A stretch of 64,000 nucleotides of DNA from Mytilus trossulus (lineage: Eukaryota): contig NC_086373.1 of assembly GCF_036588685.1 (NCBI RefSeq), positions 21,576,001 through 21,640,000 of the forward strand, in the 5' to 3' direction. A program made the translations under genes and the position numbers. Under the pieces are notes generated by a model that had not been told where the DNA came from, ran no database searches, and saw only the letters and a program-made list of their open reading frames with translations. Below, piece by piece: positions 12,028-58,602 of this stretch; within the stretch, counting starts at the first letter, position 1, and every line of letters starts with the position of its first letter.

Positions 12028-13543
12028 TGGCAAGATTAAGGGGTTATGATCGTTTCCCGTAATTGTACGTCGGATCATATTAGGTTTTTACTTTCCAGGA
12101 AGTTCTGTTGAGACCATCTCATGTCTACCCTGAGTGGCCGGTTCTGAATTGGTACCAGTTCGAGCTTGACTGTTAATGATACATAGTATGGCCTATGTAT
12201 TCAGTGTTTTATAATATAAAAAATGTTAATCTTTACTCCCCTGAAACCAGGGGGTGATGCGAATAAGACCCGACGTATTTGGGGATCATAACCCTCGTTC
12301 TCTTTAGAATTTAACCTGGAGGAACTTGAGCATCCATTGCTACCAATGGTGCACAGATTTGTCAGTTAAAACTAGCATGTCGGCATTCTGTAATCATGTC
12401 AGACCTCGTCATTCTAAGTGAACTGTGGCCGTTATTTCCACAATAGTTATTTGTTTGTTATGTTTTTGCCTAAAAATGGATTCTGTGATTAATACGGTTT
12501 ATCGCTTTTATAAGATAAACCAATTTAATTAAAGAGAAATGATTATTGCCTCATTCGGATCCGGTTCTTGTTTCCCGCCAATCAACGTCACATGACTCGT
12601 CAGCATTACATTGCACTAGCCAATCTTGTAGATATGTAAAAGTTTCAAAAACCCACCCACCTCCCCTTGCAATCTGCCATCTAATAACAATTCTTGTGTC
12701 TGCTGCTGTTTTATTTATCTTTTCAGAATGACCAGAACATGCCGGATCCATAACTTATTGGACAAAAAAGAGGAGACAATCAATCCGATGGATTTGCTAG
12801 CTGATTCATACGTTCGAGAACTATAATTATTATGTCAATGCTAATTTTCATGAATGGCTACCACCTTTATCTAAATATTTAGACACATTCAGTGTGAAAA
12901 TGGAATTACCAATACCTGGTATTAGATCTTCGCCTAGATGCATTTAACTTTTGACTTTATTTCAAATGGATAAAAATCATGCAGCATTTATTTTAATAAC
13001 TCGATTCTAATTGTTCATTGTTTTGTAATAAAATCATTCGTCACAGTCAAAAAGGGTGTCGGGATCTGGCAAGATTAAGGGGTTATGATCGTTTCCCGTA
13101 ATTGTACGTCGGATCATATTAGGTTTTTACTTTCCTGCGGTACCGCAGGAAGTTCTGTTGAGACCATCTCATGTCTACCCTGAGTGGCCGGTTCTGAATT
13201 GGTACCAGTTCGAGCTTGACTGTTAATGATACATAGTATGGCCTATGTATTCAGTGTTTTATAATATAAAAAATGTTAATCTTAACTCCCCTGAAACCAG
13301 GGGGTGATGCGAATAAGACCCGACGTATTTGGGGATCATAACCCTCGTTCTCTTTAGAATTTAACCTGGAGGAACTTGAGCATCCATTGCTACCAATGGT
13401 GCACAGATTTGTCAGTTAAAACTAGCATGTCGGCATTCTGTAATCATGTCAGACCTCGTCATTCTAAGTGAACTGTGGCCGTTATTTCCACAATAGTTAT
13501 TTGTTTGTTATGTTTTTGCCTAAAAATGGATTCTGTGATTAAT
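12028..13543. repeat. Near-identical direct repeats (12028-12493 and 13067-13543) bracketing a copied segment
   Basis: The copies are 466 and 477 bp. They differ by an 11-bp indel inside a palindrome and about one substitution. Confidence 0.92.
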
Positions 13544-18500: not shown

Positions 18501-18910
18501 TATACAACTCGTTAATAATAAATAAGAGTGTGTAGTAAGATTGTCAATACGACAAGTTTCCAACGGAGATCAAAGGACAAGAAAATACACAACTACTGGT
18601 CACAATGGGACCTTAGACAATGAGCAAAACTCGCACCATATAGTATCCTTTAAAAGACTAAAACTGAGTCTGCTACTTTATTAAAATAGTGCCAGGAATA
18701 AAAAAAAATCGATGTTAAATACCAATTGTGTGTGGGGTTATATACAACTGTTAATAATTTAATTTTGGATGAAACTCGTCTTCTGATTGGCTGACGTAAT
18801 TTTGTTATCAGCCCATATACATAATTTAGTCATGTGACCGTGACGCCATCAACGTTTTATTATGGTTTTCTACGGTTTGAAATGGAATTTAGAAAATAAA
18901 TTATAAGATA

Positions 18911-19123
18911 TGTAGTAAATGTCCGGAAAGTGATTGCCACAACCAGACTTGTTACCGGAACTTCAGTTAGTATTTACTGCGCAACCTCGCAGAATATATC
19001 CGGAGCTCAGACGACCCACTTGTGGTGAACTCCAGTCCTGGGATTCCTGCCCTATCAGTATATTCTACCAAGACAACATCTTATATTAGGAAAGGTATAT
19101 CGAATTATTGCACCTTTACAACA
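18911..19123 (+). repeat. 5' LTR (213 bp)
   Basis: TGTAGTAAA...TTTACAACA with imperfect terminal inverted repeats; 211/213 identical to the 3' LTR. Confidence 0.97.
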
Positions 19124-19124
19124 T

Positions 19125-19137
19125 TGGTGTCAGAAGT
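19125..19137 (+). promoter_or_regulatory. Primer-binding site complementary to tRNA-Leu
   Basis: TGGTGTCAGAAGT starts 1 nt after the LTR. It is the reverse complement of the 3' end of tRNA-Leu(CAA)-type tRNAs (..ACTTCTGACACCA). Confidence 0.88.
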
Positions 19138-19613
19138 CGGTTCGAATTTACTTTAAATCGACTCGAGACATTCATTGTTTCCTGACATTTTGGCGGCAAA
19201 ACTGAAAAATCACAACAAAGAAAACAAATAGTTATTGTACCTACAGAAAAGAACATTACATATTTCATGAGTATAATAATCATGGAAATTTAATGTCAGA
19301 ATTTCTGACAACCGTTTGCCCTTACATCCATTTGTTTTCATAGAAATACCTACTTTGATAATATTTGAAAATTTTCAAAATTCCTGGTGTCAGTTTTACT
19401 GACACTCCGCAATATGGCTAATCATTGAACAATTATCTTATCGTTATAAATCAGTGTCAGTGTTACTGACAATCCGCTATTTTGTTATTCAGTAAATGAT
19501 AAACTGCATATTTATATAATTGTGTCAGTGTTACTGACAGATTGCGACAAACCGCTACACGGTTATTTAGTAAATAATAAATCGCATAATTATAAACATT
19601 GCGTAAAAATAAA

Positions 19614-21163
19614 ATGGCGAAACCGATAAATATAAACAAAGCTAACTTTACGCAGTTAAAAGCGATTAAAAGGATAGGTGAAACTAGAGCCTTAGCAATA
19701 ATTGCAAAGAGAGAAGAAGAGGGATTACTTAATTTAGATAAACTTAAAGAGATTTCAGAAGCACCCCAATCATTGTGGACTGCACTGTTGAATGAGAAAA
19801 TAATTTGTTTTGAAGACCCAGAGGAGTCTGATGAAGGTCAAGAGGTCCTAAAAACACTATTGAGTCATTACGTCATAAGATTTTGTCGGTAGAAAAGTCG
19901 AGAGATGATATGGCAGAGACTTTTCAAACAAAAATTGAGAAAATTTCTGAACAGAGTAAAGCACAGATAGAAGAACAGAGGCTTATTTTTGAACAACAAA
20001 GAGACATTTATACAAAACAGAAAGAGGAACAAATTGAACAAATGAAAGAAATGATTAAATCACAGAATGATGAGATTAAAGATATACATGAATATTCAAA
20101 GAAAATTCAAACTCAACTACAGCAGAAAGAAACTGTGCTTAAGGTAGAAAAAGTAATAGCCGAAAAAGAGGAAAAAAGTAGTCCTGGTCAATTATTGAAA
20201 GGAAAATATAATGCTTATGATCATAAACATTCAGATTATGGTGGTCCCACAGCACCAAAGATGTCAACATATGATGGTAGAAATGACTGGCGTCCTTATT
20301 ATCTACAATTTAGCACTATAGCTGATAGATGCAAATGGCAGAGTGAGCAAAGGTTGTATAAATTGATTGAATGTTTGCGAGATAAAGCTTTGAAATTTTA
20401 CAGCTCAAGACCAAAGTTAGTACAAACTAATTATGAAAGCTTATGCAAGAAAATGGAAGAGCGTTTTGGTAGAAAGGAACCGCCACACATTGTAAGAAGA
20501 CTTTTACAAGATCTTAAACAAGAGCAAGAGGAATCGTTAGAGGAATTTGCAGAAAGAGCACAGGAGCTGGCTACCGATGGCTACCCGGATACACCAGATA
20601 ATTTCGTACAAACTTTGGCAACAGATGCTTTTCTTAAAGGTTGTGTAGACAAGCGTGCAGCTTTGATTGCTATGGACAAAAATCCAGATGCTCTGGATCA
20701 AGCGGTACAATATGTACGAAGTGCAGTGGCGAATCAAAAAGTCATAATGGGTACACGAAGAGCAGAAATTAAAAGGGTTTCTTTTATGGAGCAAAATGAT
20801 GAGAATGAGGATACATAGGAAACATCAGTCCGTGCAATTATGAAGTCTGACGAAGGAACAAATAAGATGAATGTGTTCGAGAAAAGATTACAGAAGACAG
20901 AAGATGATTTATTAGAAACTAAGATCATGGTAAAAAAAGTATTGAGCATAGTAAGTCAGAATATGAGGTCAAGGTCACCACAAAGAACAGATCGAGCTTT
21001 TTCGCCACAAAGAAGGTACAATAGTCCTGCAAGAGGTAATTGCTACAATTGCGGGGAAGAAGGTCATTTTAGTAGGGATTGCAAGAAGCCCAGAAATAGT
21101 TCTCCCTATCGTAATAGATCTCCATCACCAAAAGCTTTAAACGACTCGGGGCCAAGGATGTAG
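19614..21163 (+). pseudogene. gag: Gag: N-terminal ComEA-like HhH domain, coiled coil, capsid-like domain and CCHC zinc knuckle (one frameshift, one internal stop)
   Basis: Motifs: ININKANFTQLKAIKRIGETRALAIIAKRE (HhH); YDGRNDWRPYYLQF..LKQEQEESLEEFAERAQEL (capsid-like); CYNCGEEGHFSRDC (knuckle). Frameshift near 19843; in-frame TAG at 20816-20818. Confidence 0.9.
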
Positions 21164-21199
21164 GCCAATCCTTGACCTTTTCAGATGATACAGGCCAAC
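21136..21199 (+). promoter_or_regulatory. -1 programmed ribosomal frameshift signal (T TTA AAC plus stem-loop/pseudoknot)
   Basis: The heptamer TTTAAAC (21136-21142) is in the correct gag phase. After a 7-nt spacer comes the stem GGCCAAGGAT/ATCCTTGACC (21150-21177). The -1 frame is open into pol. Confidence 0.85.
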
Positions 21200-22080
21200 C
21201 GCCAACAGAAATGTCTGGTCAAGAACAGAAGTTTTCGATTCAAGAAATTTTTTCATTTTATAAAAGCAAAAAATCAAAAACTTTGTTCATTGAGATGAAA
21301 ATTTTAGGAAGAACATTTAAGGCTGTAATAGATAGTGCAGCACAAATATCTGTTTTGAGTACTTCAATTTTACCACTTTTACAGTCAACAATTAAACTAA
21401 AGGAACATTTAGTTTTGCGAGGAGCTGGAAAAAATTCTAAAATTGATGCTAGATATACAGAGGAGATACCTATCGAAATAGGGAAGTTAAAATCAAAATG
21501 GAGGTTTGTAACTGCTAACATAAATGATAATATCATTCTGGGTATTGATTTCTTGGAGAAATTTGGAGCAGTTATTGATATGGCTAACTACACAGTCCAC
21601 ATAAACAATGAGGCTATACCAGCGGTCTGTTTTGTTGGGAACGAGGGAGAAGAAATAAACTTATACAGGATTAGTATAAAAAAGAAAACAGTTGTGCCAC
21701 CTCATAGTTTAAAAATAGTTGATATGGAAATTGATCATCCCCAAGCAGATGATATCATCATTCAGCCGAAATCCAATTTAAAAGGTCTTCTGTCCCCAAA
21801 TGCTTTAATTGCTAAGGATGAATCCGTGAAGGCTGTATTTCGAAATGACACAGACACTTTTATCACATTGAAAGGGGGTCATAAATTTGGTATTGGTATG
21901 GAGATATACAATGTTGTAACTGATCAGGGTGATTTGGATGAAGACCCCGAAGTACATAGTGACAGAGTTTCTGTCAATGTCGATAATGCAAATTCGTGTA
22001 AAACGTCAGAAAACATAAGTGACAGATTTTCTGTCAGTTCGCCAACTGGTAATTTCGAGACATTGGAAAAGGTACGTGTA

Positions 22081-22290
22081 GGTGACAGGGTTTCTGCTGG
22101 TCCATCCCAAGGTGACAGATTTTCTGTCAGTCCGCCTCAAGGTGACAGATTTTCTGTCAGTCCGTCCCAAGGTGACAGATTTTCTGTCAATCCTTCCCAA
22201 GGTGACAGATTTTCTGTCAGTCCGCCTCAAGGTGACAGATTTTCTGTCAAACCGCTCAAAGGTGACAGATTTTCTGTCAAACCGTCCACA
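22081..22290 (+). repeat. In-frame 30-bp tandem repeat (7 units, GDRFSVSPxQ) in the PR-RT linker
   Basis: GGTGACAGATTTTCTGTCAGTCCGCCTCAA-type units at a 30-bp period; two further degenerate cores at 21960 and 22020. Confidence 0.95.
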
Positions 22291-25200
22291 GAAATTCGTT
22301 CTATACTAAAAGATGGAAATTCTGTAAATAAACTAAACAAATTAAAAGAACTCAATTCTAAGATTCCAGAACACCTAAAAGATTTGTATACTCGAACAGT
22401 AAAAGATTTTGACATAGATCGTAGCATAAAGATTGCTGAAGTACTCATTGAATTTCAAAATATTTTTTCTAAAGGCGACATGGATCTGGGATTGTTTAAT
22501 GGGGATATTAAACATCGAATTCACACAGGGGAGGCAGCTGCAATTAAACAACAAATGCGTAGAACTCCACTGAAATTTGAGAATGAAGAAGAAAAACATC
22601 TTAGTCAAATGTTAGATAAGGGGGTTATTAAACCTTCTATTTCAGATTGGTGTTCCTGTCCTGTTTTAGTAAGAAAGAAGGACGGCAGTCTGAGGTACTG
22701 TATTGATTTTCGTCCCCTTAATAAAGTGACAACTAAGGACGTGTTTCCTTTGCCAAAGATTGAGTTTTGTATGGATACTTTGAGAGGAAGTGCCTACATG
22801 AGTACGTTGGACATGGCTGCAGGTTATTGGCAAATAGAGATCGATGAGAAAGATCGACATAAAACGGCTTTCGTCACGAAATATGGACTTTTCGAGCATG
22901 TCCGACTGCCTTTTGGATTATGTAACTCACCAGCTACTTTCAGCCGAGTCATTCAGTTGGTTTTGAAAGGTCTGACATGGAGAGAATGCCTTGCATATTT
23001 GGATGATGTCATCGTTTTAGGTCACAGTTTTGATGACCATTTGATTAAGCTTCTGCACATCTTAAAAAGATTTCAGTACTACAATTTAAAACTTAAACCG
23101 TCCAAATGTTTCTTATTTCAAAAAGAAGTCAAGTTTTTGGGGAAAATTGTAAACAAAGATGGTATTTCAGTAAATCCGGAGAATATGCAGACTGTAAAAA
23201 GTTGGCCAAGACCAAAAAAAAAAAGGAGCTGGAATCTTTTCTCGGGTTCACAAACTACCACAGGGAACACATAAAGAATTATGCTGAAATTGCTGTGTCT
23301 TTGCATAAATTAACAGGAGGAAAATCAGAGTTTTTATGGACTGAAGAACAGGAAAATGCTTTCGAACAACTAAAAATAGCACTAGTAAATTCTTCTGTTT
23401 TAGCCTATCCTGATCCGGAAGCTACCTTCATACTTGATACTGATGCCTCGGACAAAACCATTGGTGCTGAACTTAGCCAACTACAAGATGGAAAAGAAAG
23501 AACGATAAGCTTTTCGAGTAAGGTTTTAACACCAGCTCAGAAAAAGTATTGCACAACTCGAAAGGAGTTATTGGCTATTGTCACTTTTACAAGGCAGTAT
23601 AGACATTATTTACTAGGTAACCAGTTTGTTGTCCGTACAGATCATAATAGTCTCACTTGGCTGTTAAATTTCAAGAATATTGAAGGTCAACTAGCTCGGT
23701 GGATTGAGGATTATCACAATATAACATGTTAGTTCAACATAGACCAGGTAAAAAACATGTAAACGCAGATGCTCTTTCACGAATCCCAGATACACTTAAT
23801 GAATGCAATTCATACTTGCCAAGTATTCCACTTAATAATCTTCCATGTGGAGGTTGTAAATACTGTACAAGAGCCCGGAGTCAGTGGTCCACATTTGAAG
23901 AAGAAGTAGACTTTGTTAAACCACTAACCGTACGTGCTGTAAGCATTAAAGATGTCACATCCACAAAAGGGAAGATATTACAGCCTTATACTGAAAATGA
24001 ATTAAGAGACGCACAAAAAAATGACATAGATCTGAGTACTGTTATTGCCTGGTTATCTACTGATTTCTCTCCTTCAAAACAAGACTTACAGATGAGTAGT
24101 CCATTGGTAAGGCATTTGTGGCAGTCAAAATCTGAACTTGAGTTTAGAAATGGTATACTCTACTATTTTTGGGATGATGCAGTTGCACCAAGGCTCTTGT
24201 TTATAACACCAAGGAAATTAAGACAGGCAATGCTTCATCTTTGTCATGATTTACGATCAGCTGGACATTTAGGACAAGATAAAACCTTGGCAAAATTAAG
24301 ACACACAGTTTACTGGTATGGAATGACAATGGACTGTAAACTTTATGTTTCAACATGCCATATATGCAATAGATACAAAAAACCTTTGAAGAGAGCCAAA
24401 GCAGAATTGGGTAGGTACCATTCAGGCGTTCCCTTTGAACGTATTCATTTGGATATACTTGGACCATTGCCAGTCACTCAACAGAATAATAAGTATGTTC
24501 TGGTCATCATAGATCAATTTACTAAGTGGTTGGAATGTTGTCCCTTGCCAAACCAAAATGCTGAAGTGGTAGCAAAAGCTTTGATGGATAGCACTATATC
24601 TAGATTCGGTTGTCCCATGGAGCTACATACAGACCAAGGCAAAAATGTAGATGGGAGGGTTATTAGACAACTATGTGATCTTCTTGAAGTTTCCAAGACA
24701 AGAACATCTGCATACCATCCTGCCTCCAACGGTCAGGTTGAGAGATATAATAGAATAATTACTCAATTAATCCGTTGTTTCTTAAAGAAGAATCAAAACA
24801 GATGGGATATCCACCTACAACAACTAGCAGGTGCTATCAGAGCAACAGAGAATCGACAGACTGGTTTTACACCGAATTTCATGGTTTTCGGACGAGAGGT
24901 AAATCAGCCTATTGATCTGGTTTTAGGACAAATAAAGGAACGTTTTCCAGATCAAGATATTTGTAAGTATGTTCAAAGTTTAAGAAATTCTTTAGAGGAC
25001 GCTCATGATATCGCCAGAGATAATCTAAAATCTGCGCAGAAACGTCAAAAGCAAGATTATGATTTAAATCTCAACTTTAGAAAATATTGTGTAGGAGATA
25101 TTGTACTAAAATTAGATACAGCCAGGAAAGTAGGGATATCCCCAAAATTAAAAGCTCCATGGAAAGGTCCATATGTGGTCATTGAAGTTAAGTCTCCAGC

Positions 25201-25787
25201 ATTGCTAAAGATTAAAGACAGAAAAAGAGAGGAAGTCGTGCATCATGATAGACTCAAGCTGTGCATTGACAGAGAAATACCGTTATGGTTACAGAGACTT
25301 AGAAATGATATTCTTGGACGAGCTGAGAATAAATTGGAGCGAGACACTGATATGGAGCTGGAGGATTTATATCTGGATATTTTATTTAGTGGTGAGAATC
25401 AGAATACTCAAAATGGTTTGAATCCTCTGTCAGAATCTCTGACTGACGATCTTGATAACAATGATCCCTTCTTGGTGTCATATTCTCTGACAAACAATTA
25501 TAATAATGAACAGATAATTCTTAAAGATCTTCATTCACTTATTGATATCCCGTCCGATTTAGACGCAACACTCGCTTATGACTTGAGTCAAAATTCGCTG
25601 CTTCCGAATAGTGATGATATAAATCGCGATACAGACAAATTAGATAATGGGTCCAAACAGGGACAAGTAGGTAGGCGCAAAAGACAAATGCCATCCTACT
25701 TACATGATTATGTACAGTAGATATTTTGAAATAGTGTAAATAGGATTATTATGTATATATTTACATGTTCGTTAATTTATTTTAAGT

Positions 25788-27254
25788 ATGGAGGATGAGC
25801 TTGATTATGGTCCATTTGATGGTGAAATCCCTGAAAGATTGGAGGAAGATGCCAGGATAAAAGGCAGTAGTAGGAATCTGAGTAAGGCAAGACTCTGTCC
25901 GGTATGTCCAGGTCGTTTCACTAATGTAAGAAGGCATGTATTTCACCAACATTTGCCCTGGTACACTAATCCACTAACTGCATGTTGGACTTGCCATAAA
26001 TAATTTGGTCAGAAAAGATGTTAGAAAATCATTGCCTTGAACTCCACAACTGCAATATTGCTGATAATATTTTCAAAGAAGAGTACCAGTCAGTATGGAC
26101 AGAATTGATGAATGGTCTCCTATTGGAACTTTGCCAGCGCTATGACAAAAAGACCCTTGATCATCTGGTGGAGTATGTACGAACAGAAGCTGTCTTTAAA
26201 CAATGTCAATCAGCTGTATTCCATTGGACAGATATACCCTTATTGAATTTCTACAATAAAAAAAAACAGATTTGATGTGGAAGTCATTCATGCTGTATTT
26301 CCTCCATCTGCAATATATTCTTTGGTACATTGGAAAATTTTGGCTTTATTATTAAAAGGAACTGAGGATGCCGAAAATCTTATAACATTTGAAAAGGAAA
26401 TATCCCTCTATCAATGCAGTATCCAAAAGGCTATTATGGTTACTGATTCTCATTTCCATTTGGATAAGATGAAACAACAAGCCAGATTTTCTGGCTTACC
26501 GATCTACAAATGGAAAGATGGAGAATCAGTATACCAAATAAGACATCTGATTGCTAATTATGCCTTCCCAAGACGCTGGACAACAATAGAAGAGATTGGA
26601 GAAATCAGGAGAGATCGACGTATAAGAAGTACTGCTGGTATACATCCACGGATAGTGAAGGGGGAGGAGATGAGTGTACTGAGTTCATGGATTACCGATT
26701 TAGAGATGTTAATCTGTGTGAACAGAATGATTGCAGTTGGAGAATGTGGGTTAGACTCCTCTGATAAACCAAATAGCAAAGAACTCAAGAAACAGGTCCA
26801 CGTATTTGAGGAGCAGCTTAAACTAGCTAAGAGGCAACATCTTCCTGTGGTGATTCATTGCAGGGGAGACAAGAAAATAATGAATATGTGCAGGGATTCA
26901 TTAACCAATTTCCTAGAGGAAGATCATCCAATACATTGGCATTGTTTTAATGGTGACACTGAAGAATACAGACAATGTAAAGCCATGTTTCCTAACGGTA
27001 AATTTGGTATCTCTCCGTTCCTACTCATGGATAACAAGTATCCAGGATATAGAGCAACCGTTTGTGAGATGAAGTTGGAGGATCTAGTTTTGGAGACCGA
27101 TTCACCCTATCTTAAACCTCAAGGACACCATGAGGCATCTCCTGGACTACTTAAGGAAATCATCTGGAAGCTCGCATCCATGTTTCACGTACACTCCGAG
27201 GAAATAGCTAGGGTGACAACTCGGAATGCCAGTCAACTGTATAATATAAATTAA
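25788..27254 (+). pseudogene. Accessory ORF3: two C2H2 zinc fingers plus a TatD (TATDN2-like) nuclease domain; ~488 aa when repaired
   Basis: Fingers: CPVCPGRFTNVRRHVFHQH and CWTCHK*FGQKxMLENHCLELH. TatD motifs: DSHFHLD, GIHP, AVGECGLD, FEEQLKLA..LPVVIHCR, HWHCFNG, LETDSPYL, TTRNASQLY. Lesions: TAA at 26001 and frameshifts near 26015 and 26258-26266. The TatD domain itself (26277-27254) is uninterrupted. Confidence 0.93.
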
Positions 27255-27391
27255 ATGCAGGAGGAAGGAATTTGTATATATGCTTTTAACCTGATTATTG
27301 ATTGATTGACAGTTATGAATTTGTTTTTTGGTTCGGTGAAGGATTTTAGCATATCGTTATTAGTGTCAGCATTGATGGCTGACGTTTTAAT

Positions 27392-27405
27392 AAAACGGGG
27401 AGGAA
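27392..27405 (+). promoter_or_regulatory. Polypurine tract
   Basis: AAAACGGGGAGGAA directly abuts the 3' LTR. Confidence 0.88.
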
Positions 27406-27618
27406 TGTAGTAAATGTCTGGAAAGTGATTGCCACAACCAGATTTGTTACCGGAACTTCAGTTAGTATTTACTGCGCAACCTCGCAGAATATATCCGGAG
27501 CTCAGACGACCCACTTGTGGTGAACTCCAGTCCTGGGATTCCTGCCCTATCAGTATATTCTACCAAGACAACATCTTATATTAGGAAAGGTATATCGAAT
27601 TATTGCACCTTTACAACA
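27406..27618 (+). repeat. 3' LTR (213 bp)
   Basis: Copy of 18911-19123 with two C/T differences; followed by the TSD GATA. Confidence 0.97.
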
Positions 27619-29338
27619 GATATGACTGGAATATTTTTTCTGTCTATTAAAATTAAAATTTAAAAAAATGTGGTGTGTTAAATAACCCGCGGCTACGCGC
27701 GTTATTCAGTGTGCACCCAATTTTTTATGTTATTTCTTCATAGACAGAAAAAATATTACAGTCATTCCTTAAAAAAATATTTATTTTCTGATTATTTTGG
27801 GATTTTCAACCACATTTATCAAATGCTATTTTTTTTTTATATGTGTGTAAATCATATAAATGTTATTTACGAACAAAATATAAAACTTTCCATGTTCCTT
27901 CCTAATAACACAGTTTTATATGCTACGTGTGTTATTGAGTGTGTAACACATTTTTATGTTATTTCTTCATTTAAACAGAAACATATTACAGTCATTCCTT
28001 GAATATACATGTATTTTAAAGTTTAGTTAAGTATTTAATTTTCTATCGAAACCAATTTTCGACAGTTTGCAATATGAGTTTTGACCGTCAAACTCAGTTT
28101 AAGTTCTTTTTCTAGGACATACATACGTAGTCATGAATAATAAGGTTAGGAGAAATTCGTTTGTGAATGTTCGTCTGACTGAAATGACGAAAACAATAAT
28201 GATACTTTGCAGAGGAAATCAATGTTCTTTCATCTGAAGATTGTTTTCAACGTAACCAAATTTATCCCATTGACACGCAATACAAAATTTAATAATAAAT
28301 AGCATGCAGGATTCCCATTATCCAGATTATCTTCAAATAAGTCGCTTATACCAATGAGAAAATAAATTCAATTTTTTTCAAATTGAATAAGAACTTGACT
28401 GTTAAATTATGTAACGGTTTGTATGTACTGAAGTTAATTGATCGTTTTTATGTAAATTTCATTCACTTCTCAAATCTGTAACCTACAAATTCAATAATGA
28501 TTTTTTTTGCCATGAGGGAATTGTCTCCTGAAAAAGTGAAATTATCTTCAATATACTGTCGAATTTATCCTCAGTGAAATAAATGACTCGAGGTCATTTC
28601 ATTTCACCATCGAGACTCTTAAATCTGTCAAAATCGCAAGTCGCTACAGCCCTATCAAGTTGTTGACTCTGAACAAAAACTCATTATAAAGAAATAATCA
28701 AAACACCAATTCCCCGGTTGTAAACTCATCAAATTTATCATTCAGGATAAGGAAATGAAGCAGAGCATCATATTTGTTCAAATATGTGATATTTGTTCAA
28801 ATATAACATATTGCTACATACATAACATTGAATTGCTGCGAAACTGCAAGGTTAACTATAGAGTATGTTGTTTATGAAGTCAATATGTATGCATTGATCT
28901 CAAAATTGGTCTACATAAGACAAACTTCTCACGAAACACTGCATGGAAATGATCTTATAGACACCTCCATCTACAGGCTTTGACAAGAAACCATAACATT
29001 TTTATATAGAATTATAATTAATAAACACATTTTTGACTTATACTTCTTTAGGTGACAACGAATTATTTTGTTCTTTACATCCTTTAATTTACTTCAAATA
29101 CCTGCACACAAAGAAACTTACTTTATTGATATTATAGAGGATTGCTTAAGCAAGACATTTGCGTCATAGACAGTATTATAAATAAATATATATATGAGTG
29201 CCATTTCGGGAGAGAAACTTTAACTTAATGTTTAAGCGCAGTACCTTTATAGATTATATTAACATTAGTGTGTTATTTGATTTATACATACCCTAGTATT
29301 AATTATGAAAAAAATGAAAACATCACGTTTATTAATTT

Positions 29339-35300: not shown

Positions 35301-35797
35301 ACGAGTTTCCGTTTGCTTGTTGCTTGTATCATTAAGCACATGCAAATCTTTACACAACTTATCATAGCATATAATTGTTTTTGTAGATGATGTAGAGACA
35401 AAAAGATAAAGTTATTTTTGTGCAAACCCAAATTTTTATAAGTATGAAAAATATTTGATAAACATATAAAGCAATTTATACAACATATTATTATAATTCT
35501 GTACGATTACGATGCACTTTAAGACCAGATGACAACAATAGTTACGGCATTTGTTATTGGATTTTCAAAACAACCTTTGTAAGAGTGCATAAGATAAGCA
35601 ATAAACGTTTATTCAAAACATTTAATGTTTTAATGGGGTTTTAATTCACAAGAAGAGGAGAGAAATTAATGCACGTGTTTACTAAGGATTTATTTGTTTG
35701 CACTAAAGATAATGATTACGGTGTACAAAAAAATAGGTGAACGCATGATATTTAAGCATGAAAGAAAGTAGATGTGTGGTATATTAAAAGCATAATC

Positions 35798-36946
35798 TTA
35801 ACACAAGAAAAACATAAACACACGCTTTAAAAATGTTTTGGATTCATTTCGAAATTTGGTATCCATAAAAGCATAAATGAAAGGGTTTACAATATTGTTG
35901 ATTATAAACATATCCGATACGAACAGCACACCTGATCTCTTCGCTTTTGACATTTCCTCCCAAAAATCCTTGTTTAGTCCTTCAATAATAAGCAAAATTA
36001 CCTTTGATATATAACAAAGTAAAAATATCAAGGTTATGAAGAGAAACATAATTGTAATATTATGGGTAATTCGACGATTATTTTTCGTACGTCTTACGGA
36101 TCCATTTTGCTTGGGATTATTCACCGTCGAGGTTTCCATGTTCTTCTTTGCATCCAAACTATTTGGATCACTGATGCCGATTGAAAGCTCTTCGATTAAT
36201 TGCATGTCTCCACTAAAAGAAGCAGCGCTTTTTTTAATCGAAATTGTATTTCCTTCTAGGTCTGGATCGTTTTGCGCATATTTACGCCTCGGTTCCTGAA
36301 CTTTAAGCTGATGGAATATTGTGTACCCGATTTTAGAGTATAAAATGATAAGGGCTAATGTTACAACAGTAGCAAACGTTCCCAATACAATTGAGTAGAC
36401 AACCCGGAATGTTGTTTCGCCATCTTTTACTCCTCCACAATGCATTCCTTCTATCCCATGCTCAGAGCTGTAAAAGGAATTCGTTTCAAACACAAAGGGT
36501 ATAGGTAGTGCAATAATAAATGAACACAAATTTGCGAGACACAATGAAAGTCTTTTTACCGAACGTTGTATAGGAGATTTCTGCCGATGACACACTTTTA
36601 AATATCGCTGAATTGCTATAATGAGCAAAACAAATATTGGAACAAAAGTAGTAAATCCAGCAAAAAACTGTGTTAGCTTGCAAACTATACTGTTTGAAAA
36701 AACTACTTGATTTAGACACTCATAAATTGCAAAAGATCCAAGATATACACTTGCTATCATGTCAAAAACAGCTAAAATTGGTATGAAATATCTTTCATCT
36801 GATAGGTCCTTTATTTGAAGTGCATAAACAAACAAAACAATACCGTTTCCAAATATTCCAGTCAGGATATAGATAGAAAGAATAATAATGTTTGGTATCA
36901 AACTTTTCACTATTTCATCATTCAAATCCAAAACTGTGATGTTCAT
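35798..36946 (-). CDS. Intronless class A (rhodopsin-like) GPCR, orphan peptide-receptor-like, 382 aa
   Basis: Seven hydrophobic segments. GN in TM1, LAVFD in TM2, Cys at the top of TM3, QRY (DRY variant), ECL2 Cys, NPFIY in TM7, and helix 8 (KFR). Confidence 0.93.
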   Translation of the reverse strand: MNITVLDLNDEIVKSLIPNIIILSIYILTGIFGNGIVLFVYALQIKDLSDERYFIPILAVFDMIASVYLGSFAIYECLNQVVFSNSIVCKLTQFFAGFTTFVPIFVLLIIAIQRYLKVCHRQKSPIQRSVKRLSLCLANLCSFIIALPIPFVFETNSFYSSEHGIEGMHCGGVKDGETTFRVVYSIVLGTFATVVTLALIILYSKIGYTIFHQLKVQEPRRKYAQNDPDLEGNTISIKKSAASFSGDMQLIEELSIGISDPNSLDAKKNMETSTVNNPKQNGSVRRTKNNRRITHNITIMFLFITLIFLLCYISKVILLIIEGLNKDFWEEMSKAKRSGVLFVSDMFIINNIVNPFIYAFMDTKFRNESKTFLKRVFMFFLC

Positions 36947-38049
36947 GTTTATTCAACCCAAAAAACATACCATACACCTTGTAGAAGTTTGAATATAAAG
37001 ATTCAAAACATTTTTATTTATTGTTCCTCATATAATGTTATAAATCTATATAGATGCTGTAAACGTAGAATTTCCTTCCTTGAACAAAATAAGAGAGAAT
37101 GATTATCCATACCACTTAATGACAATTAAGGTTTGAGTTTCCTGATATTGAAATTTTAAATGAGAAAATCTTAATAAGTTAAAGTATTTCTAAGCCGGTC
37201 ACGGTTTTCAAAAAATTCAACCAGAAAAATTGTAAAGGAAATAAAAAAAAATCTGCTTTACCATTTTAATAAAATTGTATTGAAGGAAAGTAAAAAAAAA
37301 CAGGTTCCAGCCATATTTCAAAACTAAGGGAATATTTTCTCTAAATAGAATACGGATCTGAATTCAGATCTAAAGTGGAAAAAGACCTACTTTTATGTAT
37401 TATTTTAATCTTAATGTTTACCTATCCATAGTTTCTTCATATGCTCGCTCATTTTGTTCACTTCTTAAGTTGTCACTGAGGAAGATATCTGCTGTTTTTT
37501 TTTATGTTTTACATGTGACCCCAAAATAAAGCTTAACAAGTCGAAATTGTGGTATTTTGTGATTGCGTGCATAGAAGATAGCAGGGCATAGAAACATTTT
37601 TATATTGATCGATATATATTTAGATTATATGTTCATCAGATGCATACTTTGCATTTTATTTTATAGATCTACCGAAAGTAATTTATAGTCATGTGATATA
37701 GGTATATCGTGTATTTTCATTTACATCGAGAGAAAAAAATCATTTATCAGTTCATAATAATGGTATTTAACTGACAATGAAATCATATTATGCATTGTTT
37801 TGCACAACAAACACATATTCTTCTGGAATCTGAGATATTTGACTCATGCCTTGACAACTGTCTAATGCCGAACACGTCTTTTGAACAGATATAACTTTAA
37901 AGTATCATTAAGCAGTCAAATTGATGTTAATAACTTATAATATATGGCTAAATTTTAATATGCATTTAGCAGTATAAGAATGTATCATAGATGATTTTAT
38001 TTATTTCCTATAAAATTGGTATATTACAAGACTTTTGATGTTGTATTAC

Positions 38050-38165
38050 TACTGCTCCAACAAAGTTATGAGGAGGACAGATTAAAAATGACACTTCGTA
38101 AATTTTATGGACACCATCACGATTTGGTTGATCCATACGATGTATCTTTGTCCAAACTAACATTT
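38050..38165 (+). mobile_element. PLE C-terminal fragment
   Basis: LLQQSYEEDRLKMTLRKFYGHHHDLVDPYDVSLSKL resembles the PLE post-RT motif LLxQGYxxxRLxxSLRKFYGRHxDLV. Confidence 0.65.
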
Positions 38166-39049
38166 TTACCACGTGTTAGATTGTGGTTAGTTATAACGTC
38201 GTCTGATATTACTATTACCGAACGTGACATATTCACGATTGTGACTGTTTTTCTAAGTGTGAATTCGTATTGCTTGAAAACGTGGCACGGTACTTTTACA
38301 TCCTAAACTAATTTGTTGGGTTTTGATGTAGTGTTTGTTGTTTTCAACGGCATCGAATTTTTTCAAATGTTTTAACGTTTGTAGTTGTAAATCGTATTTT
38401 TTCTGTTGTATTATAGTGTTGTATTGGGGATAACTACTCCTCCAGTTCATTTGGAAGATTTAATTATGGATCAACGAAATTTAAACTATATATTTGGTTT
38501 GCAGTTTGATCAGAAGAAACAACCACAAAGCTGGATAAAACAATTAATTATCTAATAATACTTCAAATAAATATTAATTAGTTTTATAATTTTCACTATT
38601 ATTAATAGAAGTTAGACGAGTCAAAAAAATCGAATCTTGAATTTCATACAAATTCTGTTAATTTTCGGAATACGTTTTAGAAATTTATATGTGACGTCAC
38701 TTTGGGCGATGCATTGACTATGGATAACAGGGCTGTGATTTTGTGATTTTTTTCGTTTTTTATTCTCTAGCTAGTCACCACTTCAGTTTAATCAGTTTAA
38801 TCATGTATATCTATTATATAGTCATTTTATAAAAAATACTGTTTTGCAAAACTATGTATTATTCTTGATAATAATGATGTTTTGTCCCAGGCGGATAACC
38901 CTAACCGCACAACTTTTTTTAAATTTTGGTCCTCGGCGATCTTCAACTTGGTAGTTATGGCTTTCAAACTTTTTACATCTGAGCATAATTTTGTGTGGAC
39001 GTAGCGCGCGTCTGGTGTATAAAACTATTTGTTAACCTGTTACCTTTAG

Positions 39050-39415
39050 ATGGCTATTATCCGTTTGTTTCTCTGTCCTATATTTTCTCCCATTTATTTG
39101 TTTATCTATTGTAACCCTGTCGTGTAATGTTGTAATTTTAATGTTATAATTAGCACTGCCATTAAAGCAGGAGGTTTGGCATGCCACAAAACCATTTTTT
39201 CATAAAATGCTCTGTACCAAGTCAGGAAAATGGCCATTGTTACATTATAGTTCGTTTCTCTATGTGTTACGTTTCGGTGGTGTGTGTCTGTTGTGTCGTA
39301 GTTCCCTTATATTTGATAAGTTTCCCTCAGTTTGAGTTTGTAACACGGATTTGTTTTTTTCTCTTCCGATTGATGAATTTTGAACAGCGGTATACCACTG
39401 TTGCCTTTATTTATA
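39050..39415 (+). repeat. Interspersed repeat, related to the inverted copy at ~43243-43790
   Basis: Shared segments GAGGTTTGGCATGCCACAAAACC, TGTACCAAGTCAGGAA..TGGCCATTGTT and the 3' end TTTTGAACAGCGGTATAC.ACTGTTGCCTTTATTT. Confidence 0.8.
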
Positions 39416-40015
39416 TAGTTTGATTTGCAACTGTTCTGAATTTTGTTTACCATGTATCGAATCGAAAGAATGAAGTATATTGTAAAACAGATGGTGGTCC
39501 AAATGGATAAAAAGTCTTCCTGACCTCACAACCATAAATAAAAAAATTAATCATACATATGTCAGCTGGTTTTTACACTTGGAAATGCGGCAAATAAGTT
39601 TTTTCACAACTAATGGTTGTAACATTTACATGATTTTTTAAAATAAAATCCTTTTGACACAAAGAAAAAAGTATCAGAGGCACCACATTTTAAATATTAA
39701 TAGTTAATTAATAGGTATGTAAACAATTTGATGAACATATTAAACATTTACAAAATTGTATCATCATCCATAACGTTTTCAATGCACTATTAGCTATGAT
39801 GACAAAACATTTTTCGGGACATGTTTTGGGTTTTAAACACAATTATTGTAAGAGTCCATGAAATTAGCAATTACTGTTAATTCACAAGTTAACAATTAGT
39901 GCACGTGTTACCTCATGGTTCATGTGCTTGCACTTAAAGTATGATGATTACGTTATGAAAACATAGGTGAAAACGCGACATTTTAGTCTTTAAGGTAGAT
40001 GTGTGGTATAATAAA

Positions 40016-41188
40016 CTAATAATCTTTACATACGCAAAACATAAACAAACGTTTCAAAAATGTTTTGGATTCATTTCGAAATTTGGTATCCATGAAAGCA
40101 TAAATGAAAGGGTTCACAATATTGTTAATTATAAACATATCCGATATGAACAGCACACCTGATCTTTTCCCTGTTGACATTTCCTCCCAAAAATCCTTGT
40201 TAACTCCTTCAATAATCAGCAATATTACCTTTGAAATATAACAAAGCAAAAATATCGAGGTTATGACGAAAAACATAATTGTAATATTATTGGTAATTCG
40301 ACGATTAATTTTCTGTCGTCTCATTGATCCACTCTGCTTAGGAGTATTTCCCATTGAAATTGTCATGTCCTGATTTACGTTTAAATTATTTGGATCACGA
40401 ATAACTGTTGAATTCTCAATATCTTTTTCCGTTTCAATCAATTGCACGTCTCCACTCAGAGAAGCAGCACTTATTTCGATCGAAATTGTCTTTCCTTCCT
40501 GGTCTGAATCGTTTTGCGTATGCTTGCTCTTCGGTGTATTGGCCTTAAGCTGATGGAATATTGTATACCCGATTTTGGAATATAAAATTATAAGCGATGA
40601 TGTTACCACAACGGCAAATGTTCCTAATACAATTGAGTACACAATCGGGACTATTGTTTTGCCATCTTTTATTCCACCACAATGCATTCCGTCTATCCCA
40701 TGCTCAGAGCTGTAAAAGGAATTCGTTTCAAACACAAAGGGTAAAGGTAGCGCAATAATAAATGAACACAAATTTGCGAGACATAACGAAACTCTTTTTA
40801 CCGAAAGTTGCATTGGAGATTTCAGAGGATGACACACTTTTAAATATCGCTGAATAGCTATAATGAGTAAAACAAATATTGGAACGAAAGTAGTAAATCC
40901 AGCAAAAAACTCTGCTGTCTTGCAGACTATACTGTTTGAAAAAACTACTTGGTTTAGACATTCATAAATTGCAAAAGACCCAAGATATACACTTGCTATC
41001 ATGTCAAAAACAGCTAAAATTGGTATGAAATATCTTTCATCTGATAGGTCCTTCATACGGAGTGTATAAACGATCAAAACGATACCGTTTCCAAAAATTC
41101 CTGTCATGATATATAGAGAGAGTAAGACAATATTTGGTATAAGACTTTTCACTATTTCATCATTCCATTCCAATGCCGTAACATTCAT
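40016..41188 (-). CDS. Intronless class A GPCR, tandem paralogue of 35798-36946, 390 aa
   Basis: Same motifs (GN, LAVFD, QRY, NPFIY). Long stretches are identical to the neighbouring gene, and the 3' flanks are also homologous. Confidence 0.93.
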   Translation of the reverse strand: MNVTALEWNDEIVKSLIPNIVLLSLYIMTGIFGNGIVLIVYTLRMKDLSDERYFIPILAVFDMIASVYLGSFAIYECLNQVVFSNSIVCKTAEFFAGFTTFVPIFVLLIIAIQRYLKVCHPLKSPMQLSVKRVSLCLANLCSFIIALPLPFVFETNSFYSSEHGIDGMHCGGIKDGKTIVPIVYSIVLGTFAVVVTSSLIILYSKIGYTIFHQLKANTPKSKHTQNDSDQEGKTISIEISAASLSGDVQLIETEKDIENSTVIRDPNNLNVNQDMTISMGNTPKQSGSMRRQKINRRITNNITIMFFVITSIFLLCYISKVILLIIEGVNKDFWEEMSTGKRSGVLFISDMFIINNIVNPFIYAFMDTKFRNESKTFLKRLFMFCVCKDY

Positions 41189-49730: not shown

Positions 49731-52228
49731 CTAGAACAATCATATGCATGTTTCAACAAGAAACATGTGGTGCCACTATTGTTAACGCTGCCAATATCTT
49801 TATACATATTGGTCATTGTGCGGCCTTAAAACATGAGAGAACTCATACAGTAAACTCAGCTGTTACATGTGACCCCCAACAAGTACTTGTTAGAAACATG
49901 GACATAAGAAGAGTAATTAGTATTAAAGCTTATTTTTGGTTTAATGGTCTATAGACATATTCGTCAAAGCTAATGGGGTATTTTATTTTAGAAACTTGAA
50001 ATACTTTATTTATAGACTAGAAGTGGTTGTGACAGACGTGAGGTAACATCGAGATGTCTTGATGTATTGTACCGTTGGGTTGTCATCACATGGACAAACA
50101 CCTCACATTTCGTTTCATGCATATGTCAATGTTGAGGACCTACATTCCATGAATAAATGATCACAAATTATTCAAACAATTGTTTTTATCATATTTTGAC
50201 ATCTGGTTAAGATTACAAAATCATTCGTATACAAGGATATTAATATTTCAACCAATAAAAGGTCATTAACAGCCATAAGGATCAATTGTATAAATGCAAG
50301 GTCAGTAATTTGTCTATTATCATCATTACTGTATTTTCCCACAATATTGTTTTGATGGTGTAGGCGAATAATTTCTTTTGACAACGCTCAGTTATAATGA
50401 AGTATAATATTAATTTTAAAAGATAACTTGTCAGTGTTTTTCATATACTCTATATACATGTTTCAATATTTTTTCTTAATCATATTTAGTCATTACCTAC
50501 AATATGGATGTTAGATTGCATGTGTTGCTTGTGTGGATATTGTATGACCATTGTGATTTATATTAATGTTTTTTGCTCTGTATTGGCCCTTTAGTTAAGA
50601 ATAAAGACATTTATTTTGATTTGCCTTGGTTTATATTAAATTTGATCGTTTTTTTTTTTGGAAGTTGCATTGCACGTAGTCGATATCATGGCTGAAGGAG
50701 GTAGTGCCAAAACACGCAATACTGTTAATTCAGAAATCAAAATGCGATACTCGTTATAATTTCGATTTTTAAAAACAATTGCATACACATATATGTATAA
50801 TCTAGTAAAATGCGAATTTTTATTAGTGCGACACTAATCACGTCGCATACATCGCATTAATGAAAAATCTCGCAATAATTTCGAAATTTAAAAGTAAACT
50901 GCGCCTGGCGATGATCAACATTAATTTTCTCTCTGACTTTTTGCCGAAATCATGGGGAATGAGATCACTGTCGATACTATTATTTGTGGACTTTCAGTGT
51001 TATAAAACTATGTCGTATCAACCTGCTCACATGAAATTTCATAACGCCTTATTTCTATATATTTTTTCAAAACATAAAGCATTCGACCTTTTTGTTTTTT
51101 TCTTGTTTCAATATTTGTTTTTATAATGATTAAGATTATCACACAAAATTGACTCCAAAACACATTTTTACACTTTTTACCTATTATGTCTGTTTGTTTT
51201 GGTCACGTTTTATTGTCAATACGATTGAAATGTATGCGACTGTCATACAAGTGTGAGGTTTAACTAGCTATAAAACAAGGAAAACAAGGTTTAATTCAAA
51301 ACTTTCTAAATAAGAAAATGCCTGAACTAAGCAAGGAATGTGACAGTTGTTATCCATTTGTTTGATGTGTTTGATCTTTTGGTTTGGCCATTTGATTATT
51401 GACTATTCTGTGTTTTATTTTCCCCAAAGTTCGGTTTTTATTGGGATTTTACTGTACATATGAACTAGTTTGATCATATTTTGACATCTGGTTAAGTTTA
51501 CATAAACATTTCTAAACAAGGTTATAAATATTTCAACAAACCAAAGGTCATTAAAAGCCATAAGGATCATTTGTATAAATGCAAGGACAGTATTTTGTCA
51601 ATTATCATTAATACTGTATTTCCCACTATTTTCTATTGATAGTGTAGGCGAATAATTTATTTGTCAAAGCTCAGTCTTAATGTGGAATATAATATTAGTT
51701 TGGAAGGATGACCAGTGAGTTTTGTTCCAGCTATCCGGTGGTTTTCACAGATTTTCTTTATCCGGAAGAATTTTATTTATATACTGTATATACATGTTTC
51801 CATCTTTATTCATTAAGAATTAGTTTTTATGTTAGATTGCATGTATTGGTTGTGTGGATATTATATGATTTTTGTGATTTGTTTTCATTCATGTCCTATG
51901 GAAGCCTTTCAATTAGGAATAAACACATTATACGATTCGCTCGTGTATGTAACAATGTTTTAGATTTTAACGATAGAAATTTATGTATTACTGAAAAATT
52001 ATTACACAAGGGTTTTCGATATCACAAATAAGTCAAAACATTTACTAAATTTTATCATCGGTATAAAGACATCATTCGTAAATATAGCTCAACATGCAGA
52101 CTTCTAATACGTTCAGGTATTTCATATCCAATTCTTTATGGAAATATTCTTTATAAAGCACAAAGGTGTCAGTATTCACCTCAGAAACTTACAAAATAGT
52201 TATCAAAAGTACCAGGATTATAATTTTA

Positions 52229-52273
52229 TACGCCAGACGCGCGTTTCGTCTACATAAGACTCATCAGTGACGC
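52229..52273 (-). ncRNA. Type I hammerhead ribozyme
   Basis: GCGTCA CTGATGA GTCTTATGTAGAC GAAA CGCGC GTC TGGCGT: intact core, stem II GTCT/AGAC, GUC cleavage triplet, stem I GCGTCA/TGGCGT. Confidence 0.85.
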
Positions 52274-52585
52274 TCAGATCAAAATAGTTAAAAAGCCAAA
52301 TAAATACAAAGTTGAAGAGCATTGAGGATCCAAAATTCCAAAAAAGTTGTGCCAAACACGGCTAAGGTAATCTACTCCTGGGGTAAGAAAATCCTTAGTT
52401 TTTCGAAAAATTCAAAGTTTTGTAAACAGAAAATTTATAAAAATGACCATATAAATTAATTTTCATGTCAACACCGAAGTGCTGACCACTGGGCTGGTGA
52501 TACCCTCGGGGACGAAACGTCCACCAGCAGTGGCATCGACCCAGTGGTGTAAATAGTTATCAAAAGTACCAGGATTATAATTTTA

Positions 52586-52630
52586 TACGCCAGACGCGCG
52601 TTTCGTCTACATACGACTCATCAGTGACGC
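52586..52630 (-). ncRNA. Type I hammerhead ribozyme (second copy)
   Basis: Same motif 357 bp away, with one change in stem II. Confidence 0.82.
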
Positions 52631-53009
52631 TCAGATCAAAATAAATACAAAGTTGAAGGGCATTGAGGATCCAAAATTCCAAAAAAAGTTGTGCCAAACA
52701 CGGCTAAGGTAATCTACTCCTGGGGTAAGAAAATCCTTAGTTTTTCGAAAAATTCAAAGTTTTGTAAACAGAAAATTTATAAAAATGACCATATAAATTG
52801 ATATTCATGTCAACACCGAAGTGCTGACCACTGGGCTGGTGATTCAAAACCTTTGAATAGACCTATTAAGAAGGGATATAATTACGATACTGTTGTCAAG
52901 TCATTAAAGATTGCATATTTTGGCGTTAATATTGAGTCACTGATAAGGTCTTTGCATTGGAACTAAACACATTTATTCTAAAAAACAGTTGTTGGCATGA
53001 CACGGGTTA

Positions 53010-53225
53010 CCGTATAGCGGGTTATTTTCGCGGGTGTAAAATTTCGCGATTTTCATTGAAAAAGGTATACGAAATATTTTAGCGGATATTATTTGGCGGA
53101 TGAAAACTTTTATTAATACCTTTGCATGAACACCTTTAATTTGGCGGAATTTATTTTTGGCGATTTTCTTCTATCCGCGAAAATAAGCGAAAATTTACAC
53201 CCCGCGAAAATAACCCGCTATACGG
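53010..53225. mobile_element. Tc1/mariner-type MITE with TA TSD
   Basis: TA-CCGTATAGCGGGTTATTTTCGCGGG ... CCCGCGAAAATAACCCGCTATACGG-TA. Confidence 0.9.
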
Positions 53226-58047: not shown

Positions 58048-58602
58048 GGTGGTATGGGAGTCTAAAATAAAAATGATAGAATTTGTTCATACTTTGTCAA
58101 AATGTAGTATCTATTGATACATGTTCAAAAGTATTATAAAAATGATAGGTCAGCGCGCATTTTCTCAAGCTACAGGTTGTGACAAAATGACAAATTGTGT
58201 ATGGATTATACAGGAAAAAACAACATTTTGTGAATAGAAACTAAACAAAATGATAGAACTGTAAAATAAATTAGGAAAAGAGTCACCGTACGTTTTTTCC
58301 GGCTAAAAGACAAAATAGGAAAATTTCATGTAGAGTCCTTCAGAAAATGCTCTATTTTAGAGTTACCTCCCCTTAAATTGCCAATTTGAAAATATTATAA
58401 AAAAAAAAACAACCAAAAATAATCTACACTTGTAAAAATATTAATATTTATAAGTTATATTCTTATAAATTGGTTCTTTGAAATGAAAATTCACATTAAA
58501 AATCTGCATTCCTGCATCAAATTTTGCTAACTTGATAGAAAATATGGACCTTAGATTCTCTGTTTTTTACAATCCAAGATGGCGAAAGACACCCATACCA
58601 CC
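58048..58602. mobile_element. Non-autonomous DNA transposon at a TTAA site (Kolobok-like)
   Basis: TTAA-GGTGGTATGGGAGTCT ... AGACACCCATACCACC-ATAA. Confidence 0.7.

Follow-up and report, generated by a model that had tools for sequence, protein, structure and literature searches.

Most of what is known about how LTR retrotransposon particles gain access to chromosomes and avoid self-integration concerns host factors and modules carried by integrase. In some retroviruses, parts of Gag bind chromatin, and regions N-terminal to the capsid usually lie outside the shell, as in retroviral MA and Arc-type capsids. ComEA, according to the accessible text of PMC9747964, works through oligomerization, and both DNA binding and uptake depend on the lysine after its first hairpin (K164 of the B. 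subtilis protein, K166 of that from G. stearothermophilus). In molluscs, the MolGy clades (MolGy1-16) are defined by RT alone in the available part of PMC6238403.

In this study, we analyzed a stretch of 64,000 nucleotides from Mytilus trossulus (the window, which here means the whole stretch) and show that Gag of an old bivalve Ty3/Gypsy clade starts with a helix-hairpin-helix (HhH) domain of ComEA type. We propose, with a probability of roughly one half, that many such heads on a Gag oligomer bind dsDNA by avidity and thereby tether the particle or the pre-integration complex to the chromatin of the host.

Structure of the element and state of this copy

The window contains a Ty3/Gypsy LTR retrotransposon of 8,708 bases (18911-27618), with the following features.

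18907-18910, + strand: 5' target-site duplication of 4 bp, repeated at 27619-27622
18911-19123, + strand: 5' LTR of 213 nt, TG...CA, differing from the 3' LTR at 2/213 positions
19125-19136, + strand: primer-binding site, just inside the LTR
19614-19811, + strand: Gag ATG and ComEA-type (HHH_3) helix-hairpin-helix domain, residues 1-66
19830-20173, + strand: long helical stalk, residues 73-187 in the open-frame sister Gag, frameshift-broken here
20246-20770, + strand: capsid domain, Retrotrans_gag, with a PNMA2/Arc/Ty3-like fold
20816-20818, + strand: premature in-frame gag stop of this copy, ahead of the zinc knuckle
21038-21091, + strand: CCHC zinc knuckle (nucleocapsid); the gag frame ends at 21163
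21136-21142, + strand: candidate -1 slippery heptamer in the gag/pol overlap
21118-25720, + strand: pol, with protease, RT, RNase H, and integrase (Gypsy order)
25788-27254, + strand: ORF3, two C2H2-like zinc-finger motifs followed by TatD (26436-27251, HxH class)
27392-27405, + strand: polypurine tract
27406-27618, + strand: 3' LTR

The TG...CA LTRs, the target-site duplication, the primer-binding site (a putative match to the 3' end of tRNA-Leu), the polypurine tract, gag, the order of pol, the capsid fold, and the CCHC knuckle all identify the element as Ty3/Gypsy. An env third ORF, a trait of errantiviruses, is absent; ORF3 encodes the zinc fingers and TatD. The pol frame is -1 relative to gag, and the overlap holds a canonical-looking slippery heptamer, whose Leu-Asn pair is invariant in 8/8 aligned Gags. 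Via this predicted -1 frameshift, Gag-Pol would also begin with the HhH head.

The element is a young but broken copy. The initial annotation had reported one 1-nt frameshift in gag near 19843. The frameshift is present, but it lies a few bases to the right, in a short A-run at 19850-19854, and the in-frame stop at 20816-20818 is a second break. Additionally, pol carries two frameshifts, near 23.2 kb and 23.7 kb, and ORF3 is broken between 26.0 and 26.26 kb. In a sister copy (L001/L031), which is 99.07% identical to the window element over its length, gag is a single open frame of 516 aa that starts at the same ATG and encodes HhH, stalk, capsid, and zinc knuckle, confirming the proposed fusion of HhH to Gag; ORF3 is also open there (483 aa). 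Because the sister frame is open and contigs of 4/4 public runs differ from the window sequence at the frameshift site, the gag frameshift is private to this copy or to its assembly. Contigs of three runs, which we guess to be RNA, span the HhH-Gag junction and ORF3. The open-frame copies rule out an assembly artefact or a separate upstream ORF as the source of the head, and bacterial contamination is ruled out by its position between LTRs on a 113-Mb chromosome.

Between protease and RT, about 6-8 in-frame copies of a 30-nt unit (10 residues with a GDRFSV core) occupy window positions 22050-22289, and similar motifs appear again in the 5' leader, there on the opposite strand. Unrelated repeats of the window (12096-13445, 35765-40732, and 50155-63019) comprise an exact duplication spaced by 1,050 bases, a duplication spaced by 4.2 kb, and short interspersed repeats in many copies.

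Family and predicted fold of the head

The initial annotation had recognized a ComEA-like HhH domain from 19614 onward; it lies on the + strand, and Pfam HHH_3, phmmer, and the fold searches agree with it. Its end, given as 19815, matches that of the domain, which extends to about residue 66 (19811). The head scores 31 bits against Pfam HHH_3 (PF12836; E 2.7e-7, cut-off 27, residues 3-47); the full sister Gag scores 27.6, four distant families score 29-33, and one scores 22.4 bits. The best PDB sequence match of the head by phmmer is B. subtilis ComEA (E 0.005). Against a profile of prokaryote-like HhH repeats, the head reaches 48.2 bits, whereas 2000 shuffles stay at or below 13.1; these repeats were gathered with a Gag-derived profile, so that this control is partly dependent, while the Pfam match is independent. 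Scores far below the NCBIfam cut-offs (comE, 30.2 against 152.35 bits; TIGR00426, 24.4 against 53.1 bits) indicate that the head is not ComEA itself.

An AlphaFold2 model of the head, built from 52 aligned relatives (mean pLDDT 82), contains predicted helices at residues 12-16, 22-36, 41-45, and 52-60, that is, two HhH motifs joined by a loop, with no connector helix. ComEA of G. stearothermophilus (8dss) is the top match in both fold searches, with a Foldseek TM of 0.72 (E 0.05) and, in the second search, a Z of 10.0 and an rmsd of 1.7 Å over 65 residues, where Z values below ~13 can be common among helical models. Collectively, sequence and modeled structure agree in pointing to one family, the HHH_3/ComEA type.

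The next fold matches are Tex (Z 8.5), a Thermus ComEA relative, TEFM, and KIF22, with Spt6 at Z 5.2; PsbU and GspK, which are not known as DNA binders, also appear among the matches. The rank of the transcription-linked Tex and Spt6, together with the function of Gag as the RNA-packaging protein, could point to a head that binds RNA (genomic RNA, primer tRNA, or an RNA:DNA hybrid) and aids packaging or reverse transcription. However, the nearest matches of the head are dsDNA binders, and Gag already possesses a zinc knuckle for RNA, beside which lies an Arg-Ser-rich tail suited to the same task. An RNA role is accordingly improbable in our estimation, and binding of dsDNA remains the preferred reading.

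Layout of the HhH-headed Gag

The Gag protein is built from the HhH head, a long helical or low-complexity stalk, the capsid, and the zinc knuckle. In the model of the sister Gag, a continuous helix (73-187) leads from the head (1-66) to a disordered linker, behind which lie the two-lobed capsid (226-379), another helix, and the knuckle. The pTM of 0.28 makes this model uninformative on the relative placement of the domains. The modeled capsid fold matches PNMA2 (E 4.6e-4), dArc1, and Ty3. The spacer between head and capsid ranges from 52 to 717 residues (median 169).

In the first search of the own genome, the head is in frame with the capsid in a frame of at least 500 aa at 12/30 loci; the others are broken, shortened, or rearranged, and one gave no readout. 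Head and capsid occur together in 75/127 database proteins, a share biased upward by queries that contained the head domain, and in 74 of the 75 the head lies within the first 25 residues. On metagenome contigs, both are present at 5/12 loci, and several of the other loci begin too near the contig end to judge.

Several loci display altered frames. At L016 and L028, independent internal deletions fuse the N-terminus of the HhH-Gag in frame to the C-terminal half of TatD, and these HhH-TatD fusions are probably decay products. L034 and L038 are fold-back copies; their inversion of the element on itself falls inside pol or ORF3. Moreover, gag and pol form a single 2000-aa frame in L032, a copy of a sister family, and the E115/E117/E119/L131 families have natural gag-pol fusion frames of ~2,480 aa or >1,900 aa.

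Putative DNA contacts and function of the head

Arg25 of the window head aligns with K164/K166 of ComEA. This position is Arg or Lys in 48/52 close relatives, and a second Lys adjoins it in 29/52. The heads of the distant subclade have Ile or Thr there in 8/8 cases, and only three of them carry a basic residue one place earlier. Two Gly-x-Gly motifs are found in 0/52 and 0/15 Gag heads, versus 85/150 prokaryote-like domains; one such motif is found in 13/52 and 9/15 Gag heads. In the window, hairpin 1 reads R-I-G and hairpin 2 reads E-A-P; the first Gly of hairpin 1, which is Arg here, is kept in 18/52 relatives. The net charge of the heads is near zero (+3 in the window) and that of prokaryote-like domains has a median of -1; as a test of DNA binding, it does not discriminate. 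Considering the Ile or Thr of the distant subclade, the few glycines kept in hairpin 1, and the missing double Gly-x-Gly, the head resembles either a low-affinity binder that uses one hairpin or a module whose role has partly changed.

For the tethering of Gag to chromatin, the head would bind dsDNA independently of sequence, chiefly via its first hairpin. A single head would be weak, and many heads displayed on the particle or on a Gag oligomer would provide avidity. The head may thus keep the particle or pre-integration complex on chromosomes, where integrase would meet its target DNA. Host chromatin is the most likely target, by analogy with regions N-terminal to other capsids, which usually lie outside the shell.

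Second in likelihood would be a use on the element's own cDNA, which the head would bind and bridge after uncoating. The head might bind or cross-bridge this cDNA in the manner of BAF, resulting in compaction, blocking of autointegration, or shielding from host nucleases and sensors. In the accessible part of PMC3381236, BAF binds dsDNA via an HhH motif and bridges viral DNA by dimerizing; Gag is likewise oligomeric and present at the site of cDNA synthesis, and the contact residues described above would serve cDNA as well as chromatin. In contrast, a head placed N-terminal to the capsid, behind a spacer of 52-717 residues, would by the same analogy lie outside the shell and away from the cDNA. 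BAF is not among the fold or profile matches, which do not exclude it, and its resemblance is one of analogy rather than kinship. We therefore regard cDNA bridging as unlikely.

A further alternative, which we consider doubtful to a similar degree, is that the head no longer binds DNA and is a protein-protein module, which might cap and nucleate the stalk, help assembly, or dock a host factor. The loss of the second Gly-x-Gly, the missing key basic residue in the distant subclade, a Pro-Asn-Thr-x-Trp segment that is new and conserved in the window's subclade, and invariant positions that mostly belong to the core (N8, A10, L15, I29, and R33) are consistent with such a role, for which PsbU, GspK, and XPF-ERCC1 use related folds. 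However, a contact position that is so often basic, frequently with a second Lys next to it, is what a DNA-facing surface would be expected to show, and chromatin tethering by the head remains the preferred reading.

Conservation and distribution of the head

The identity of the head exceeds that of the next 58 codons in 10/10 family pairs. The three best pairs give a dN/dS of 0.12, 0.17, and 0.17 for the head; a fourth pair gives 0.46, and a fifth, whose dS is near 3, gives 0.175. The ratio is undefined in 5/10 pairs, which are saturated and include the only pair with the window's family. Wherever they can be measured, these rates indicate purifying selection on the head. By column conservation, the head (0.61) stands between the stalk (0.31) and the capsid (0.72). 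Furthermore, a non-autonomous family without RT (10-14 kb read) keeps the HhH-Gag open in 3/3 copies examined. In the copies L111, L113, and L128 (G000 C4, C9, and C11) of this multicopy family, the open HhH-Gag precedes a 474-aa frame that contains part of a Tpt1 domain, and no RT occurs in the stretch read.

Searches of the own genome with two divergent heads gave at least 38 and at least 62 matches with little overlap. We built an RT-RNase H tree of 58 elements, all from this genome and picked non-randomly from HhH, TatD, and RT searches. One branch (100/99) contains every HhH-Gag and comprises 42 rows, which we grouped into 15 families. The head is present in 14/15 clade families and 0/16 outgroup rows, among which the best head score is 0.9 bits, versus at least 44 for head carriers. 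The RTs of the head-bearing families are only ~55% alike, and the head is kept across them. The head-less family (L051, L052, and L068) has a 774-aa Gag, with several open-frame copies, and TatD. Since these open-frame Gags lack the head, it is not essential; loss of the head and branching before its gain are not separated for this family (p-AU 0.27). The HhH-domain tree (69 columns) divides the heads into the two subclades already seen with RT (100/97 and 99/94), and a single origin of the heads is not rejected (p-AU 0.65).

The head is conserved and widespread in bivalves, namely mussels, oysters, and the pearl oyster. Near-identical proteins in public data come from Mytilus edulis and M. 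coruscus, and the named carriers include three Mytilus species, Pinctada imbricata, Crassostrea gigas, and Ostrea edulis. Head and capsid also occur in two proteins assigned to the bins of Ca. Thiodiazotropha and Sedimenticola, which would represent host DNA in symbiont bins. With an HhH-only profile, the best 150 matches among 50%-identity representatives are multi-HhH proteins, 0/150 with a Gag capsid, and this search is uninformative on taxonomic range; Atlas searches gave best scores of 0.83 and 0.82, which are leads only. This clade could correspond to one of those named MolGy.

The alternative of a chance resemblance, or of a captured fragment that evolves neutrally, could appeal to the shortness of the domain, the Foldseek E of 0.05, and the scores under the NCBIfam ComEA cut-offs. 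This explanation is ruled out by the Pfam cut-off that the head passes, the far lower scores of the shuffles, the fixed position at the start of Gag in 14 families, the occurrence in several bivalve genera, and the purifying selection, and we assign it a negligible probability.

The label "ComEA-like" does not show a bacterial donor, because EEPD1, KIF22, and TEFM share the domain type and the HhH-domain tree does not resolve the donor with its 69 columns. Per domain, the Gag profile scores ComEA at 45.4 and 43.6 bits versus EEPD1 at 34.0 and 26.6; EEPD1 is the best whole-protein PDB match of this profile, and a host EEPD1-like gene has two domains that score 34.9 and 32.2 bits. Among the host HHH_3 genes (L151-L155), named by resemblance, one is this EEPD1-like exon with its two domains, another is an exon resembling Tex/SRBD1, and three are less clear.

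TatD and other extra modules

ORF3 matches Pfam TatD_DNase (E 2.4e-42), and the metal-site motifs HxH, GExGLD, IHxR, HxHCF, and ExDxPY look intact in 7/7 aligned ORF3s. By these motifs, ORF3 is a predicted TatD nuclease of the HxH class, as this class is defined in the available text of PMC10085689, and the ZnF-TatD module named in the initial annotation is real. ZnF-TatD or TatD is present as ORF3 in 12/15 clade families. The suspected co-occurrence of HhH and TatD holds for 11/15 families with both modules and fails for three with HhH only (L131, E119, and E115/E117/E121, whose ORF3 lacks TatD) and one with TatD only. An obligate HhH-TatD partnership is ruled out, as each module occurs without the other across families; TatD is an older companion of the head and not its obligate partner.

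These data bear on a layout like that of EEPD1, which combines two HhH domains with a nuclease; here, the head would be the DNA-binding half of a split nuclease and the TatD of ORF3 the catalytic half. Both modules map to one RT clade and mostly occur together, EEPD1 is the best whole-protein match, and the TatD motifs are intact, but the families with one module only argue against this layout. Moreover, a single TatD clade is rejected (p-AU 5e-7), which indicates that HhH was kept after the loss of TatD. We consider a split nuclease very improbable.

The third ORF of the outgroup shows Cys/His zinc-finger-like motifs by eye, and no TatD, in 5/5 informative elements; the 3' ends were read for seven (six outgroup and one in-clade) of 19 elements sought, and one outgroup stretch without integrase is uncounted. 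TatD thus seems to have joined a pre-existing zinc-finger ORF3 near the base of the clade. In outgroup Gypsy elements and TatD-less families (L170-L174, L168, and L117:683-2101), a third ORF of 157-505 aa is widespread and unnamed; it is mostly Cys/His zinc-finger-like, with no confident Pfam match where scanned. In addition, Pol starts with a Tpt1/KptA RNA 2'-phosphotransferase domain ahead of the protease in L055:894-3002 (also in L053, L054, L056, L066, and L067); in L055, a distant family of the same clade, this domain matches Pfam PTS_2-RNA (E 3.6e-36).

A broader reading, possible if tentative, is that this is an ancient marine-invertebrate Gypsy clade that replaces host factors by a DNA-handling kit of its own, consisting of the HhH array, ZnF-TatD, and, in some families, Tpt1/KptA. 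The capsid-displayed HhH array would be a built-in chromatin tether or a barrier to autointegration, the ZnF-TatD nuclease would process cDNA ends or damage, and a predicted Tpt1/KptA ADP-ribosyl-transferase would front Pol in some families.

Comparison with known systems

The initial view that HhH is not a standard Gag module is consistent with the literature searched, in which we found no such Gag. TatD and HhH have 0 occurrences in the searchable part of PMC5408684, and TatD or helix-hairpin occurs 0 times in the accessible text of PMC6238403, on mollusc LTR clades, and in five of its supplement files, one further scanned file being unsearchable. The helix-hairpin-helix of PMC10309623, in the part available, is the leucine-zipper helical hairpin of CERV and is unrelated to the Gag head. 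Neither HhH-Gag nor TatD ORF3 is described in the full-text literature within reach, which leaves out Repbase, most subscription journals, and preprint supplements, and the HhH-headed layout of Gag seems to be undescribed so far.

A known fold of 66 residues at the start of Gag, conserved, absent from one family, and with a key residue, makes the tethering model for Gag directly testable. The broader reading of a DNA-handling kit, if true, would provide a Gag-encoded, sequence-independent DNA-binding route to target capture, undescribed for LTR elements in the literature searched. The layout also explains misleading annotations: a mussel Gag is named comEA, others are called interaptin-like or CAP-Gly linker protein, and some HhH-Gags are filed in bacterial symbiont bins as helix-hairpin-helix proteins. 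Such misnamed proteins could pass wrongly for gene transfer or host genes.

Among retroelements, the Gags of Ty3/Gypsy (Metaviridae), PNMA2, and Arc share the capsid fold, the zinc knuckle, and a coiled-coil-like N-terminal part with the protein described here, but no HhH head is described for them in the literature searched. According to the available text of PMC5408684, Juno and Vesta, LTR elements of bdelloid rotifers, similarly carry a captured nuclease as a third ORF; theirs is a DEDDy 3'-5' exonuclease, of another family than TatD. BAF, as presented in the accessible part of PMC3381236, offers a dsDNA-binding HhH motif in a retroelement setting and a possible functional model, whereas it is a host protein of another fold family. 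EEPD1, KIF22, TEFM, and Tex/Spt6 (PDB 9yi2, 2edu, 5ol9, and 3bzc) have the same domain type as the Gag head; in contrast, none of them is a capsid protein, and the per-domain score of EEPD1 is below that of ComEA. Finally, the head resembles ComEA (PF12836; PDB 8dss, 8dfk, and 2duy; accessible text of PMC9747964) in its predicted fold, its two loop-joined HhH motifs, its N-terminal I-N-I-N-x-A segment, and, in the window and most close relatives but not in the distant subclade, the basic residue after hairpin 1. Unlike ComEA, it has no membrane anchor, signal peptide, or oligomerization domain; it begins at the first Met, its second hairpin is degenerate, and it is fused to the capsid of an animal retrotransposon.
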